Source of the DNA: Candidatus Kerfeldbacteria bacterium CG08_land_8_20_14_0_20_40_16
Lineage (GTDB): Bacteria; Patescibacteriota; Patescibacteriia; UM-FILTER-42-10
DNA: 46,784 nt
Reading direction: 5' to 3'
Assembly (NCBI GenBank): GCA_002774635.1
Contig: PEXU01000056.1
Coordinates: 1-46,784 of the forward strand
Made by a program: the position numbers and the translations under genes. Of this stretch, positions 30,617 through 37,818 are shown in pieces (the first letter of the stretch is position 1; every line of letters begins with the position of its first letter). The notes under the pieces are model-generated. The model was not told the DNA's origin. It searched no databases and saw only the letters and a program-made list of their open reading frames with translations.

Positions 30617-33586
30617 ATGACCTATATGAAAGAGTTGCCAAAAACTTACAATCCAAAACTGGTGGAGGATAAAATTTACCAGCTCTGGGAGAATTCGGAC
30701 TACTTTAATCCTGACGACCTGCCCGCCGTAGCTCGGAGAGCAAAGGCGGGGCTTCCAGAAAAAAGAATTAAAACTTTTTCGATTAGCCTTCCTCCTCCCA
30801 ATGTCACCGGCAAGCTGCATATCGGGCATTCCGCCATGCTGGCTTATCAGGATATTATGATTCGCTTTCACCGCATGCAGGGCGATAAAACACTTTGGCT
30901 TCCGGGCATGGACCATGCCGCTATTGCCACCCAGAATGCTGTGGAAAGAGAGCTAAAAAAAGAAGGTAAGACTCGCCATGATTTAGGGAGGGAAAAATTT
31001 TTGGCAAAGGTTAATGACTTTGTGGCAAAATCAAAGGACACTATCAGAAAACAGCTGAAAGCTATGGGTGCTTCTTTAGACTGGTCTCGAGAAAAATTCA
31101 CCTTAGGCGAAGATCTTTCTAGATCGGTTCGAGTAGCATTTAAAAGAATGTACGATGACAGGCTTATTTACCGTGGCGACCGAGTAGTAAACTGGTGTCC
31201 GCACTGCCAATCTACCCTGGCGGATGACGAAGTGGAGTACCAAGAAGAAAAAGGAAAGTTGTACTATATCAAATATGGTCCTGTTACTATCGCCACCACC
31301 CGGCCAGAAACAAAACTGGGCGATACAGGTTTGGCAGTACATCCTGATGATAAGCGTTATCAGAAATTAATCGGAAAAAAACTGGATGTTGACTTGGCTG
31401 GACACAAAATCAAAGTAAAAGTTTTTGGGGATAGGGCCGTAAATATGGAATTCGGAACCGGTGCTATTGGCGTAACCCCAGCCCATAGTCTGCAAGATTA
31501 TCAATGGGCCCAAAAGCATGACTTAGAAATTATTAAAGTAATTGACGAGCAAGGAAAAATGACCAAAGCCGCCGGCAAATATGCTGGCCTGGATGTTTTA
31601 ACCGCTCGCAAAAGATTTAGTGATGATTTAGAAAAAGCGGGACAAATAGAAAAGATTGAAGATTATACCAACAATCTTTCCCTCTGCTACCGTTGTAATA
31701 CACCAATTGAACCCCTGCCTTCTAAGCAATGGTTTGTGGATGTTAATAAAAAAACTTCTCACGGTAAATCATTGAAACAGTTAGCCAGCGAGGCAGTAAG
31801 AAGCGACCAGATTAAGATAATTCCCGAAAGATTTACTAAAACCTATTTTCAGTGGATGGATAATCTAAGAGATTGGTGCATTTCTCGCCAAATTTGGTAT
31901 GGGCACCAGATTCCGGTTTGGTATTGTGGAAACGAACAGAAAAAAATGGGCTTTCATGAAAAAGTGGTTCCTCAATTATATCAAGGTAAAACAAAAACAT
32001 ACCGCTTACGGGATCATGGTTTTAGTGTTGGCGATCGGGTTGCTTTTGAAAATAGTCAATCAGAAAAAATATTTGGATATGGCGTTATTAAAAATATCGA
32101 GGAAACCACCGTTGGCCAAATCGATTTACAAGACAAAGCTCACAGGTCAACCTATGATACGGTTGAGGAATTGATTGCAGCATTTAAAAAACATCACCCT
32201 GATCGAAAAATAACTCCTAAAACCAAGGCAATTATTTATACCTATAAATTTTCCCTTGATAAACCCAACAAAAACGGCTGTGGGGAAATTATTGTTTCTG
32301 TTAATAAACCCAACAAATGTCCTAACTGCAAAAACTCAACTCTTTCCCAAGATCCGGATACTTTGGATACTTGGTTTTCTTCCAGCCTTTGGACTTTTAG
32401 CACCTTGGGGTGGCCAAAAAAGACCGATGATTTAAAAAATTACCACCCCACTTCCGTTATGGAAACCGGCTACGACATCCTATTCTTCTGGATAGCCAGA
32501 ATGATTATCATGTCCACTTACCTATTAGGAGAAAAACCGTTTGACTATGTTTATTTGCACGGCCTGGTAAGAACAAAAGAAGGTAAAAAAATGAGTAAAT
32601 CGGATCCGGAAACTTCGGTTGATCCTTTGGATATGATTGAACGGTTCGGAGCAGATGCCTTAAGGCTTTCTATGATTATTGGAACCAGCGCCGGAAATGA
32701 CGTGAGAATCTATAAAGAAAAAATTGAAGGCTACCGCAATTTTGTAAACAAACTTTGGAACATTAGCCGCTTTATTCTTTCTGCTGTAAAAAATCCTGCT
32801 TATCCTAAAACAGCGCCTAGGGTTAAAACCTTAAGTGATCAATGGATTTTGGAGGAATTGGAAAAAACTATTGAGATTGTCACAAAAAAAATAGCTGGTT
32901 TTGAATTTTCCCAGGCTGGAGAACAGTTAAGATATTTTACTTGGGATCAGCTGGCCGATTGGTATTTAGAAATCGCCAAAATTGAAAAAAATAAAGATGA
33001 TATCCTTCTGTGGGTTTTAAAAAGAATTCTAATCTTATGGCATCCGTTTGTTCCTTTTGTTACCGAGGAAATCTGGCAGACCGCTTTTGCTGAAGAGAAT
33101 AAGTTGTTAATGGTTGAGCCCTGGCCAGAAGTTCAAAAAGACCAAACCAAAGCTGGTCAGGATTTTAAAAAGATCCAAAACGTAATCATAGCTTTAAGAA
33201 ATTTCCGAGCAGAATACAATATTCCGCCTGCTACCATAATTTCAATTTCAGCTAAAAAGAATCCTCTAATCGAGAAAGAGAAGAAAATCATCGCTAAACT
33301 GGCTCGAGTAAAATTTTCTGCTGTTAAAAAAGGAATTCGTCTGACAATTGGCCAGCTCGATTTTACTATTCCACTGGGAAATTTAATTGATATTGAAAAG
33401 GAAAGAAAGAGAACTGGATTGGAATTACAGACAAAAAAGAGGTATTATGAATCACTAAACAAAAAACTCACCAATAGATACTTTCTCCAAAAAGCTCCTC
33501 GAGAAATAGTTGATCGCGAAAAAACAAAAAAGAAGGAATTGGAAGAAATAATCAAGAAACTTACAAAAAAGCTCAAGTATTTATAA
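30617..33586 (+). CDS. valS: Valine--tRNA ligase with inserted ASCH-like domain
   Basis: PPPNVTGKLHIGH, DHAAIATQ, DWCISRQIWYGH, DTWFSS, KMSKS. Confidence 0.97.
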   Translation: MTYMKELPKTYNPKLVEDKIYQLWENSDYFNPDDLPAVARRAKAGLPEKRIKTFSISLPPPNVTGKLHIGHSAMLAYQDIMIRFHRMQGDKTLWLPGMDHAAIATQNAVERELKKEGKTRHDLGREKFLAKVNDFVAKSKDTIRKQLKAMGASLDWSREKFTLGEDLSRSVRVAFKRMYDDRLIYRGDRVVNWCPHCQSTLADDEVEYQEEKGKLYYIKYGPVTIATTRPETKLGDTGLAVHPDDKRYQKLIGKKLDVDLAGHKIKVKVFGDRAVNMEFGTGAIGVTPAHSLQDYQWAQKHDLEIIKVIDEQGKMTKAAGKYAGLDVLTARKRFSDDLEKAGQIEKIEDYTNNLSLCYRCNTPIEPLPSKQWFVDVNKKTSHGKSLKQLASEAVRSDQIKIIPERFTKTYFQWMDNLRDWCISRQIWYGHQIPVWYCGNEQKKMGFHEKVVPQLYQGKTKTYRLRDHGFSVGDRVAFENSQSEKIFGYGVIKNIEETTVGQIDLQDKAHRSTYDTVEELIAAFKKHHPDRKITPKTKAIIYTYKFSLDKPNKNGCGEIIVSVNKPNKCPNCKNSTLSQDPDTLDTWFSSSLWTFSTLGWPKKTDDLKNYHPTSVMETGYDILFFWIARMIIMSTYLLGEKPFDYVYLHGLVRTKEGKKMSKSDPETSVDPLDMIERFGADALRLSMIIGTSAGNDVRIYKEKIEGYRNFVNKLWNISRFILSAVKNPAYPKTAPRVKTLSDQWILEELEKTIEIVTKKIAGFEFSQAGEQLRYFTWDQLADWYLEIAKIEKNKDDILLWVLKRILILWHPFVPFVTEEIWQTAFAEENKLLMVEPWPEVQKDQTKAGQDFKKIQNVIIALRNFRAEYNIPPATIISISAKKNPLIEKEKKIIAKLARVKFSAVKKGIRLTIGQLDFTIPLGNLIDIEKERKRTGLELQTKKRYYESLNKKLTNRYFLQKAPREIVDREKTKKKELEEIIKKLTKKLKYL

Positions 33587-33611
33587 CTACCTAATTACCT
33601 AAAGATAATTT

Positions 33612-34130
33612 ATGGTAAGAGAATTTTTAAGTCGAGGCGCAAACTACACCGGAGCCTTAGTGGAACGCGAGATGCTAGGAGAATTAAGAAAAGGAATAGA
33701 AAAGGAACAGTATCAGCCCTATAATGAGGCCCTGGATTTTGTTCGAGAAAATCAGCCTTTTGACCCCAGTGATCCGGATCCCCGTTTTGCTAATGATCTT
33801 CACGCCACTATTGCTGACGCCCTAAGATTAAAAGATTATAAACATCTAGAATTTTATACAGCGGTTGGTTCTAATCTTGACCAGTTTCACGGAGTAGACG
33901 CTTTTATTGAATGGCATACCGATCCAGAGAATAATCCAAAGGCAGTGCAGCGGGTTACTTTAGATATCACAATTAACCCTCAAAAAGGCGAAAGCTATAA
34001 GGCGGATGTACTGATCTATGTACCAAGTGAAGGACTAGATCCTAAGGAAGATAGAGAAGAATTTGCGGAATTAGTCAATAATACAGCTGAAGAAATTTTG
34101 GAAAAATTGAGTCATCAGTCCAAGACTTGA
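33612..34130 (+). CDS. Hypothetical protein
   Basis: 172-aa acidic ORF directly after valS; LD..HGVDAF..VTLD.T pattern. Confidence 0.75.
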   Translation: MVREFLSRGANYTGALVEREMLGELRKGIEKEQYQPYNEALDFVRENQPFDPSDPDPRFANDLHATIADALRLKDYKHLEFYTAVGSNLDQFHGVDAFIEWHTDPENNPKAVQRVTLDITINPQKGESYKADVLIYVPSEGLDPKEDREEFAELVNNTAEEILEKLSHQSKT

Positions 34131-34205
34131 CACATTTTTTTTTAAACTGTAATATGCTAAGTCACTAAGTCATTATAATAAACGGCATACACGTTAGGAG
34201 GTTCT

Positions 34206-34517
34206 ATGACCAACGATGACAACTCTCAGGAAATCAAGAAATCGTTCTTTGGCCAAGTCAAAAAAATAGAAGCAACGGGTGGCCACACACCTGATTTAGG
34301 AAGGTTACAAAAACCGTTAGAAGGCCCTGATTCTGTTGTTCGATTATTCTGTACCGGCTGCGGTACTTACGTCGAGCTTACTCAACGTGGCGCAGAAATT
34401 ATGGTTCGTCCAACCAATGTTTCTCTCCCGGCATCTTTGGAAGGAAACTATCTGAAAACAGCCAGCTGCAGCGCTTGCGATGGGGATGATCCTACGGTTA
34501 CCATAGAAATCATTTGA
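34206..34517 (+). CDS. Hypothetical protein with two CxxC motifs (possible Zn-binding)
   Basis: SD AGGAGG; CTGC and CSAC; upstream TTGACA and a downstream terminator. Confidence 0.75.
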   Translation: MTNDDNSQEIKKSFFGQVKKIEATGGHTPDLGRLQKPLEGPDSVVRLFCTGCGTYVELTQRGAEIMVRPTNVSLPASLEGNYLKTASCSACDGDDPTVTIEII

Positions 34518-34607
34518 TCTTCTTTCGCTTCTATCCTCGCGGGTTCCTATCGATCAGGGCCCGTTTTTTTATTTTAATAATAGAACGAAATAGACACCTT
34601 AGCTAAT

Positions 34608-35056
34608 AAAAAATGGCGTTGTTGTGGTGAACGCCATGTCGCTAAGGTGCATATTCATTAATAACACTCAACCTTATGTCTCGGTCGAATCCCGCCTGCC
34701 TTGCCGGTAGGCAGGCGTAGGCGGGACTTATTTTTGTACTGGGAACCCAATAGTTTCCCAACATTTCTGTCAGTTCCCCCATTAGGTACAAAAATAAATG
34801 TTGTCCGTTTGTCACTCCGCGCGGGCCCAAGGTCAAGGACTTACACCCGTACCCGCTTTGCGCTAGACCTTTATCCCTCTGTCTCTATCACACATTCAAG
34901 AGGTGCTCAACCCAAATGGTCTAGATCAGCCCGGCAACTAATACGCCAGGCCTCAGTTTCCGGTCCCATACCTTCACCGAAGGTATGGGAATGAGTCCCG
35001 GCGTTTAGTCTTTAGACTAAACGATTATCTTTGTGTTTCTTAATTCTTAAGGATCT
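34608..35056 (-). ncRNA. Candidate large structured non-coding RNA (~450 nt)
   Basis: Minus-strand TTGACT-N16-TATAAT (35090-35063), many nested stems, terminator 34636-34608, no credible ORF. Confidence 0.6.
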
Positions 35057-35155
35057 TCCTTAATTATATAAATAACGGAAAGGAAGTCAAGTTTTTGCTC
35101 ATAATTAAAATTCCAGAATTACTCTGGGATCGCTATTTTATTTCAACGAGTTCGT

Positions 35156-36955
35156 TTACTCAGTCACCCTAAATACTTCTTCTATTGTAGTTATTCCATC
35201 TTTTGCCTTCAATAATCCATCCTGAACCATAGTGATCATTCCGTGCTTTACCGTCACTTCTTTCATCTGATATTCCGACACTTTACCCGAAAGAATAATT
35301 TCTTCGATCTCCTTATTCATAGTAAATATTTCATAGATTCCAATTCGGCCTTTGTAGCCAATGCCATTACACTGGTCACATCCTTTTCCCCTAAAAAATT
35401 GAAGATTGTCCAAGTCTACCTTTTCGCCGGAATTTTCCGGTGTTTGAGAAAGAATTTCTTTAACTCTCGTAAGGATTGTTTCATCTAAGCTGATTTCTTC
35501 CTGGCATTCTTTGCAAATCCTCCTCACTAGCCTTTGACCAATTACTGCATTAAGAGCAGGAGCGAGTAGAAACGGTTTTGCTCCCATTGATAGAAAACGA
35601 GGAATGGCGCCCGCGGCATCATTAGTGTGAATAGTGGAAATCACCAAATGGCCGGTTAAAGCCGCTTGAATAGCAATTTCGGCCGTTTCTAAATCTCTGA
35701 TTTCTCCTACCATAATAATATCAGGATCTTGTCTCAAAATTGCCCTTAGCCCTTGGGCAAAAGAATACCCCTTTTTGCCTCCTCCCCCTCCACTTAAGCC
35801 CTCTCTTAAAATGGTCTTCAAATCTTCATCGTCGCCTTCTCCTTTGCCACTAACTTGGCTTTGGACAATTCCCTTAAGCTTATATTCGATGGGGTCTTCT
35901 AAGGTGATAATCTTAGTTTCTGGGCGGTTAAGGGTATTAAGAATGGCGTAGAGCGTGGTCGTTTTTCCCGATCCAGTCGGCCCGGTAGTAACTATCATCC
36001 CGTTGGGCCTTTTTGATTCCCGCTTTAAATCTTCGTAAGACTTCCCTCTGATTCCTAAATCTTCGAATTTTAATCCTACCGATTGGGACATTAAAAGACG
36101 CATTACCACGCTTTCGCCAAAAGCCGAAGGAAGAGTAGAAACCCGAACATCAATCTTATCGTCTTCCAGATAAATGGTGATTCTTCCGTCTTGGGGACGA
36201 TTAACAATATTTATCTTTAGCCCAGAAATAATTTTTATCCGACTAATTATCTTCGGCCACCATTCTTGGGGCAGTACCGCCACATCCTGCAGTACCCCGT
36301 CAACCCGGTAACGGACTTTAATATCTTTTTCCTCCGCTTCAATATGAATATCGGAACTGCGAGCCTGGATGGCGCCAGCTAAAATTATGGTTACCATCTC
36401 AGTCAGTGAGACTTTTTTCAACTTGTTGTTAAGTTCCCGAAAAGATTTGATTTCCGCTCGATACTTATTCAGTTCCTCTCCACTTATCTCTACTCCTGCT
36501 ATCACTTTTTTTATTTTAGGAATGGCGGCATAAAGCTTAAGGGCCTGCTGCAAGCTGTATTCCGAAATTAAATAAAGTTCAGTGTTTAAACGTGGAAATT
36601 TTTCTTTAAATTCACCGATAATTTTCGAAATCTCCGGATTAGCTGGGTCAACCACACCGATTCTTAACTCCTCTTCGGTCCTAAGGAAACAAACTGCTTT
36701 GATGGCTTTTGCCTTCTCTTCGGGAATTAAGGAAAGCGCTTCCGGTTCAATAGGAAATCCTTTTAGACTAATACAGCTCAAACCTAGCGGGGAAGCTTTT
36801 TCTGCCACCAGCTTTTCTTTTTCTTTAATTTCTATCTCTTCTATCTTGTGTTTCAACTTCTCTTCCGTTTCCTCCGATGATACCTGGAGCTTGCCGTTTT
36901 CTGACCCATTTAATAAATCGTTGATTGTTTGATCCATGTTCCTAAGTATAACCAA
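35156..36955 (-). CDS. pilB: GspE/PilB-family type IV pilus assembly ATPase
   Basis: SSDIHIE, PQDGR, TGPTGSGKTTT, EDPIEY, LRQDPDIIMVGEIRD, TGHLV.STIH, CxxC pairs. Confidence 0.9.
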   Translation of the reverse strand: MVILRNMDQTINDLLNGSENGKLQVSSEETEEKLKHKIEEIEIKEKEKLVAEKASPLGLSCISLKGFPIEPEALSLIPEEKAKAIKAVCFLRTEEELRIGVVDPANPEISKIIGEFKEKFPRLNTELYLISEYSLQQALKLYAAIPKIKKVIAGVEISGEELNKYRAEIKSFRELNNKLKKVSLTEMVTIILAGAIQARSSDIHIEAEEKDIKVRYRVDGVLQDVAVLPQEWWPKIISRIKIISGLKINIVNRPQDGRITIYLEDDKIDVRVSTLPSAFGESVVMRLLMSQSVGLKFEDLGIRGKSYEDLKRESKRPNGMIVTTGPTGSGKTTTLYAILNTLNRPETKIITLEDPIEYKLKGIVQSQVSGKGEGDDEDLKTILREGLSGGGGGKKGYSFAQGLRAILRQDPDIIMVGEIRDLETAEIAIQAALTGHLVISTIHTNDAAGAIPRFLSMGAKPFLLAPALNAVIGQRLVRRICKECQEEISLDETILTRVKEILSQTPENSGEKVDLDNLQFFRGKGCDQCNGIGYKGRIGIYEIFTMNKEIEEIILSGKVSEYQMKEVTVKHGMITMVQDGLLKAKDGITTIEEVFRVTE

Positions 36956-37047
36956 TCTTAGATTTCTTGTAAAAAACTGCCAATGGGAAAATAATTGACT
37001 TATTAATTAGCAACTGCTATTCTGAAACAAATCGAACCTTCAACAAT

Positions 37048-37818
37048 TTGAATAATTATAAGGAGAATGCCATGAACGGCAACTGTCGGACTATTTCGCC
37101 TTTGCAAGAAATTGCTTCTTGCTTGCTGAATGGCGAGTGCGGCAGCCGTCATTCTAATGGATGCACTGCCGCCAGCATGCTCATAACCAGGATGCAAAAG
37201 GAGCTTACGGATTGTCAGCAGCCATACTTTTGTACCATGAAAAACCATGAAATCAGCTGCGATGTCTGTTTACGGAGCATTATTACTGGTTCTTGTCAGA
37301 AGCCTGCTAGTTGTCAGAGCCCTTTCTGGAAAGCCCTAAAGGAGGTTGCGGAACGAGGGGAAGTGGTCTTTGAAAAAAGGGAGGTAATTTCTCCCATTCC
37401 CTTTATTATTCATTCTCATGGAAAAACTACAGTATGCGAGCAAAAAATCCTCGTGCCAGTGGAAGACCGATCCCGGAAGAAAGAAACGCCACCATCCCCG
37501 TTAAAACCAGCTAAGGTTCTGCCGGCCCCAACTTCTTCTCCAGACATTATTGCTCAACCAGCGGCTCTACCCAAGAGAGAAATTGTCTCTTCAACCTCTC
37601 CTGTGGTCTTGCTTAAACCCAAAGCAGATGATCCCTCACTCAAAACACTATTTGGCTCTAGCGTAGTCAAAAAGTTGGCCAGCCATAACATTTTCACTCT
37701 TAGTGATATTTGCAGGTGCAGAGTACCTGAATTAGAAACCCGGCTGGGGAAACCTTCAGCTCAAAGAATTTACAATCGCATCCGACAACGTAGTATTGAT
37801 TTCAACACCGCCTTATGA
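37048..37818 (+). CDS. Hypothetical Cys-rich protein with Pro-rich linker and C-terminal HhH-like region (start probably 37072)
   Basis: SD AGGAG before 37072; many Cys in the N-terminal ~90 aa. Confidence 0.65.
   Translation: MNNYKENAMNGNCRTISPLQEIASCLLNGECGSRHSNGCTAASMLITRMQKELTDCQQPYFCTMKNHEISCDVCLRSIITGSCQKPASCQSPFWKALKEVAERGEVVFEKREVISPIPFIIHSHGKTTVCEQKILVPVEDRSRKKETPPSPLKPAKVLPAPTSSPDIIAQPAALPKREIVSSTSPVVLLKPKADDPSLKTLFGSSVVKKLASHNIFTLSDICRCRVPELETRLGKPSAQRIYNRIRQRSIDFNTAL

Follow-up and report, generated by a model that had tools for sequence, protein, structure and literature searches.

The window (the whole stretch of DNA analyzed, 46,784 nt) is contig C7 of a 1.13-Mb home genome that is rated 96% complete and is present in groundwater and aquifer metagenome runs. 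The element under study, on the minus strand, occupies the interval that separates the end of a PilB/GspE-type ATPase gene (PF00437) from a convergent gene of 103 aa. This gene (two CxxC) is paired with a 172-aa gene (33612-34517 for the two together); neither has a Pfam match. Six further genomes of the class conserve the pair. It follows valS within the family and otherwise adjoins engA or tyrS; these neighbor names were read from the sequences. At 37048-37818 of the window, a 256-aa Cys-rich ORF shows a weak helix-hairpin-helix match at its C-terminus.

The features of the element are summarized in Table 1. A near-consensus minus-strand promoter and an intrinsic terminator had been proposed in a sequence-only reading, and both are present. 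The promoter is the top-scoring site across 33000-37000. Since the genome contains 90 sites of equal quality, this counts as good evidence without being unique. The terminator stem has a mean pair probability of 0.94; it was absent from the list of a consensus scanner because its loop of 9 exceeds the scanner limit of 8. Seventeen bases identical to the pre-terminator stretch of the element also start a hairpin at L165 ~1500 (G002:C1:14253), within a leader that is promoter-led and precedes a transporter-like gene.

Two ORFs of at least 50 aa overlap the element (64 aa on the minus strand and 97 aa on the plus strand). No stop-free frame across the core is common to the homologs.

The element is single-copy in the home genome. 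DNA contigs from four metagenome runs span it with matching pieces, and no divergent copy was found among the matches listed. The 24 runs listed for the genome include no RNA run, which speaks neither for nor against expression. Synteny placed no element at the matching site beside pilB in the five family genomes (0/5): pilB abuts valS in G001 with no element between them, and G002, G003, and G005 retain the 172-aa/103-aa gene pair and lack the element.

Table 1. Features of the element in the window (L216, near full-length homolog)
Feature	Position	Strand	Remarks
Structured-RNA element, ~450 nt	~34608-35090	minus	Promoter- and terminator-bounded, non-coding
Sigma-70-type promoter TTGACT-16-TATAAT	35063..35090	-	11/12; predicted start ~35056; identical TTGACT-16-TATAAT before L216
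5' 9-bp hairpin	35002..35023	-	Pair probability 0.89; sequence varies, position retained; different 9-bp hairpin there in L216
5' module GCCGGGACTCATTCC, variable hairpin (34964-34990), GGACCGGAAACTGAGG	34951..35002	-	Sequence comparison
Stem after CTGAGG	34928..34952	-	Far longer in the other subtype
Conserved core	34805..34930	-	Model R3, 126 bits; P1, P2, and P3 stems and conserved loops
P1 CTAGACC/GGTCTAG	34924-34918 with 34869-34863	-	Core stem
Internal loop with AGCA and GATAA	Within core, between P1 and P2	-	Core alignment
P2 CCTCT/AGAGG	34903-34899 with 34880-34876	-	Core stem
18-nt loop TGAA-N5-GATAGAGAC	Capping P2	-	Core alignment
CGCAAAG	Core, between P1/P2 module and P3	-	Core alignment
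P3 GCGGGT/GCCCGC	34856-34851 with 34826-34821	-	Core stem
GCGGAG	Core, after P3	-	Core alignment
3' long stem TTATTTTTGTAC/GTACAAAAATAA enclosing a GAAA-capped hairpin	34726..34799	-	Folds and comparison
Hairpin GTCCCG/CGGGAT, loop holding dispersed REP-like palindrome (34693-34717)	34688..34728	-	Loop of 7 nt here in L216
Hairpin ATTCGACC/GGTTGAGT	34666..34690	-	Retained in L216
Intrinsic terminator	34608..34637	-	Stem ATGGCGTT/AACGCCAT at 34637-34613 and T6; different terminator hairpin at equivalent position in L216

Homologs of the element

The family has seven members: the window copy, L216, L279, L280, L284, L286, and L296. L216, in a record named Ca. Portnoybacteria, is a near full-length homolog (E 7e-31). 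When 185,579 species genomes were scanned for an exact 18-base match, 43 loci were returned, and L216 was the only true one. It retains long identical blocks, its peripheral hairpins are swapped for different ones, and it has its own promoter and terminator. The motif common to the window and L216 recovered two more members among 250 phylum genomes (L279 and L280), and the loop motif recovered a further two among 71 genomes around one of these (L286 and L284, the latter with a 51-nt peripheral insertion); all four share the core. The six-sequence model R3 was run on 134 genomes from a different class of the phylum and matched 5 of them. It added L296, which was outside the training set, scored 110.7 bits, and shares the core.

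R3 found no member in the family relatives (0/5 genomes; one match at E 0.77) and gave no full match among 39 relatives, from which three weak ones were dropped: L402 (in coding sequence), L401 (seen as an alignment only), and L400 (partial). L400:1501-1588 (G036) is intergenic after polA and consists of a P3-like stem and then GCGGAG, with no P1 or P2, at 20 bits. The two-sequence model R2 matched only G401 itself among 111 genomes and none of its 110 relatives, with three weak matches rejected; the single-sequence model R1, run on 149 genomes, gave two weak matches, each of which lies in coding sequence.

BLAST with the window copy returned palindrome matches only, in 4 of 60 relatives. It returned no member from 400 genomes of the class of the window; short matches in 26 of these were judged to be chance, part of them having been inspected. 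Phage and plasmid collections gave no BLAST match. Another exact-pattern scan of genomes returned 0 loci, whereas those of metagenomes (6 loci) and viral contigs (0, 0, 0, 19, 36, 7, 0, and 86 loci) contained none that were true. A loop-only pattern matched 11 of 120 phylum genomes, one of which held a known member, and the others were rejected. A T-loop pattern in 400 class genomes retrieved tRNA T arms, rRNA, and coding matches, together with putative FMN-like leaders. The 103-aa neighbor protein provided no handle on close relatives. Within the genomes searched, this RNA family is rare and patchy. Stem-rich intergenic stretches at L118:420-720 and L111 ~980 in class genomes do not match it.

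Core fold and peripheral parts

The core runs in the order GAUCU, P1 (6-8 bp), an internal loop that is asymmetric and has AGCA facing GAUAA, P2 (5 bp), the 18-nt loop UGAA-N5-GAUAGAGAC, CGCAAAG, P3 (6 bp, enclosing a variable insert), and GCGGAG. Its loops and junctions retain near-invariant bases across members, and the core shared among the other-class members is 122 nt long.

Every stem listed in the sequence-only reading exists as sequence; however, not all are supported, and some are not the conserved ones. Those now assigned as P1 and P3 show compensatory change in the homologs, and the 5' hairpin and the hairpin at 34964-34990 are likewise supported, each being swapped for a different hairpin in L216. 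GGGAAC/GTTCCC (pair probability 0.10) and TAAGGT/ACCTTA lack support, and the two-sequence fold retains ATTCGACC/GGTTGAGT instead. CGCCGGG-CTCA/TGAG-CCTGGCG competes with GGCCTGGCG/TGCCGGGCT (pair probability 0.23 vs 0.70). P2 and its invariant 18-nt loop had been missed.

Outside the core, CTGAGG occurs upstream in six of the seven members, 57-102 nt before the core loop, and a long stem occurs downstream in all seven. L216 retains the long TTATTTTTGT stem, in which a single change affects one side only, whereas the stems nested in it are altered on both sides. In the other subtype, the position of the 3' long stem is taken by a CTTGGGT/ACCCAAG or CTTAAGT/ACTTAAG stem. A palindrome in the 3' part had been described as mobile-type. 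The repeat is indeed present and dispersed: further copies of the 34693-34717 palindrome lie elsewhere in the home genome and in genomes of the same class. However, it is inserted in a variable hairpin loop and does not indicate that the element is itself a transposon. The element carries this REP-like palindrome of Patescibacteria as a passenger in a single loop, and L216 lacks it.

The folding z of the whole element is -5.9. However, the plus strand scores -6.3, and the core alone (central 144 nt) is no better than shuffles, at -0.65. Folding energy alone is therefore not proof; it derives from the variable hairpins.

Covariation in the core

In A6, an unfitted MAFFT alignment of six sequences, both partners are altered in 13 of the 18 pairs; the core structure was read from the same member sequences as these counts, and the compensatory changes are not independent because four of the seven members were found through relatives of one match. 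Among 107 cells in A6, 96.3% pair, against 77% in shuffles (0/500 reach 96.3%) and 35-52% in slid controls. RNAalifold, unaided, returned the same three stems with 13 of 24 pairs compensatory and added an invariant CGC/GCG helix. P1 and P2 are 100% paired in A7, a fitted alignment that includes L296, and the fitted eight-row alignment, which leans toward the model, is 98.5% paired. Homologs and covariation, the check that had been named for the claim of a functional RNA, are thus both in evidence. At the level of sequence comparison, these results establish the core as a conserved, predicted base-paired structure with invariant unpaired bases, and we consider it very likely that the element belongs to a real structured RNA family.

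In six members (3.5-5 of 5), the variable N5 of the loop is complementary to a site located 41-42 nt past GCGGAG. However, the window copy fails, with a score of 2 of 5. The total pairing score is 25.5, which 5 of 600 permutations reach at any offset. The putative loop-loop pseudoknot fits six members and not the window copy, and we treat it as a post hoc lead.

We also considered that the element has no function as an RNA and is a DNA-level palindrome cluster or a mobile element of the non-autonomous type. Its perfect hairpins, the dispersed REP-like palindrome inside it, the similar folding z on both strands, and its absence from close relatives all fit this explanation. However, what is conserved across distant lineages is not the palindromes, but the core, with its compensatory changes, G-U pairs, and invariant loops. 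Moreover, the element is not repeated in its genome, and L216 retains a promoter and a terminator. Covariation largely refutes a purely DNA-level origin, which we regard as highly improbable.

Genes near the members

No neighbor gene is common to all members, and, apart from the ATPase and toxin-antitoxin genes named below, the flanking genes are unrelated. L216 is flanked by a TspO gene and a small ORF without an assigned function, and the genes downstream of both the window element and L216 are convergent. One member directly follows a tRNA-Trp gene. The other-class members occupy variable regions with BrnT/BrnA, HicA, RelE-like, and AAA_14-DUF4143 genes; AAA_14-DUF4143 ATPases lie near three of them, toxin-antitoxin genes lie near three, and three have a same-strand ORF downstream. 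Around the five other-class members, a scan detected neither a promoter nor a terminator of consensus type, and stand-alone transcription is therefore supported for two of the seven members only.

These surroundings bear on two further explanations. The RNA may be a guide, antitoxin, or decoy of a defense or mobile-element protein encoded elsewhere. The toxin-antitoxin and ATPase genes in the variable regions of other-class members fit this explanation, and the variable 5-nt loop segment could be an address. However, such genes do not adjoin the window element or L216, the variable segment covaries with an internal site, and Ro60/TROVE and reverse transcriptase were each found in none of five member genomes. 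We consider this role improbable. Alternatively, the element may be a cis-acting leader, such as a riboswitch or T-box-like attenuator, that the home genome has kept after losing the gene under its control. The succession of promoter, structured RNA, and terminator is the layout of an attenuator, stems compete at the 5' end, and three other-class members precede a same-strand ORF. However, those ORFs are mutually unrelated, both fully bounded members (the window copy and L216) face convergent genes, and no T-box or riboswitch match was obtained. An orphan leader is very unlikely.

Comparison with known RNA families

The element had been proposed to be of an unknown class, and this was borne out: it has no Rfam match at gathering or at E up to 10, and no family matched any of the homologs. 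The reported absence of RNase P, tmRNA, and SRP signatures agrees with these searches. RNase P RNA was rejected (no RF00010/RF00011 match and no P4 signature), and that of the genome is located elsewhere, on C34 (107.9 bits). A standard or permuted tmRNA was also rejected, as tRNA-like ends with CCA and a tag frame were not found; the tmRNA of the genome is on C60 (116.9 bits), and none of the 20 matches of that search falls in the element. SRP RNA and 6S RNA gave no match to the Rfam models, and a 6S RNA was not found anywhere in the home genome. Neither the element nor its homologs matched the covariance models of ROOL, GOLLD, OLE, raiA, HEARO, or other Rfam large ncRNAs. Group I and group II introns were rejected because there was no Rfam match and the element is intergenic in the window and L216, and a riboswitch or T-box leader because there was no consistent same-strand downstream gene class. 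Y RNA/YrlA (Ro60 [TROVE]) and retron, DRT, or DGR RNA (reverse transcriptase PF00078) were set aside because each protein was found in 0/5 member genomes, which are incomplete. Among 16 selected neighbor and four window proteins, no IS200/IS605 nuclease (IscB, TnpB; omega RNA/reRNA) was found.

A local similarity to tRNA-Leu scored 50.5 against a null of 30.9; that tRNA had been retrieved with the element's own motif. A tRNA-Leu derivative was rejected, as covariation instead pairs GCGGGT with GCCCGC and ARAGORN finds no tRNA. The readings as a tRNA-Leu mimic, permuted tmRNA, group I intron, hammerhead, and cobalamin/FMN RNA came from presumed motifs, and they were dropped once the homologs had fixed the structure.

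Three other RNAs of the home genome were also noted. Its RNase P RNA (G000:C34:18032-18337) carries several inserted palindromic repeats, and its tmRNA (C60:1898-2282) combines an atypical T loop with a long tag and is missed by ARAGORN at default settings. The tRNA-Asn(GTT) at G000:C59:1780-2396 is interrupted by a 542-nt insert, which resembles a group I intron with an HNH-type ORF.

Ribozymes and introns typically have invariant unpaired bases at a multi-stem junction, accept large insertions at their periphery, and are patchily distributed. The element has such junction bases, L284 and the REP palindrome of the window provide such insertions, and the distribution of the family is patchy. 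It may thus be an unknown ribozyme or selfish RNA element, capable of cleavage, ligation, or splicing and of spreading from genome to genome. However, no gene is interrupted in the window or L216, no Rfam intron or ribozyme was matched, the element is single-copy in its home genome, no reverse transcriptase was detected in the five member genomes tested, and there are no convincing terminal repeats. We consider this explanation unlikely.

Possible role of the RNA

Conserved pairing together with invariant unpaired bases points to a folded RNA that recognizes something. Since neither a regulated gene nor a cognate protein gene lies nearby, we favor a free-standing scaffold or decoy: a stand-alone structured RNA of ~450 nt, analogous to ROOL, GOLLD, and raiA RNAs, to which we assign a probability of roughly one in two. 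The element would be transcribed on its own from the minus strand and would fold into a compact tertiary shape. Its invariant loops and bulges may then form a surface on which a protein or a different RNA docks, as has been proposed for ROOL, GOLLD, OLE, and raiA RNAs. The RNA may also have spread horizontally between lineages.

Our leading guess for this surface is the UGAA...GAUAGAGAC loop, which might stack on a tRNA elbow or on a second copy of the RNA. We take this loop, with its UGAA and GAUAGAGA stretches, to resemble T-loop sequences, with the reservation that the fifth base of UGAAN is presumably not the usual A of the T-loop consensus. The interdigitated T-loop motif of RNase P, the T-box, and the 23S L1 stalk is described in PMC4810234, the available part of which gives no consensus. 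The resemblance to this motif is one of sequence only and includes the placement of the two stretches on a stem with an asymmetric internal loop. In contrast to that motif, both stretches are in one hairpin loop and are split by a variable segment, and the element has neither the P4 of RNase P nor the specifier and antiterminator of a T-box. A bolder proposal is a new class of free-standing catalytic or tRNA-docking RNA in ultra-small bacteria that depend on hosts. It would hold on to tRNA elbows (or the ribosome) by a novel double T-loop platform in a single loop, or perform a new RNA-catalyzed reaction; it would spread horizontally between classes of Patescibacteria and have a longer divergent sister, L297. 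We consider this rather unlikely.

We class the element as an undescribed family of large, probably stand-alone structured RNAs, new within a known broad kind and similar to ROOL, GOLLD, and raiA RNAs without being a member of any of them. OLE and raiA motif RNAs are likewise stand-alone and highly structured, with strongly conserved unpaired bases and an unresolved biochemical function, as far as the accessible parts of the sources describe them. However, the present family is rare rather than widespread, has no Rfam match, and has no conserved neighbor gene; we take the conserved neighbors of OLE and raiA RNAs to be the oapA and raiA genes. ROOL and GOLLD, in the portions available of PMC5737381 and PMC12286853, are large, patchily distributed, multi-junction bacterial RNAs with pseudoknots and without a known function. 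They are sometimes found near tRNA genes or in prophage-like regions (available portion of PMC5737381), and one member here follows tRNA-Trp. In contrast, the element and its homologs match no Rfam model at E up to 3-10, the family measures ~400-450 nt against an average of 581 nt for ROOL (PMC5737381, same portion), and it has been found in Patescibacteria only so far, with none in the viral contigs scanned. CGCAAAG was not found in the searched part of the PMC12286853 supplement.

Literature searches by motif text and topic, with subscription papers and most supplements outside their reach, returned no description of the family. The main text of a 2026 preprint that clusters prokaryotic intergenic sequence (10.64898/2026.10.21.760802) does not mention these lineages; its database or supplements could hold the family. 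Large, well-conserved bacterial RNAs are few, and those solved are ribozymes, core machinery, or unexpected RNA-only assemblies, according to the available portions of PMC5737381 and PMC12286853. Patescibacteria shed most accessory functions, yet the invariant core has been retained across distant lineages, which argues that a 450-nt RNA is under real selection. Probing, cleavage assays, and cryo-EM could start from the seven sequences and the model.

A second structured RNA was noted in the genome that contains L296. L297:1190-1815 (G751:C65) is promoter-led, ~580 nt long (z -4.55), and located between rpsB and a dCTP-deaminase-like gene, and it has no Rfam match. Its R3 match is weaker (30.1 bits), and only the P1-P2 module and its loop are common with the family. 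L297 is possibly a sister or parent family.
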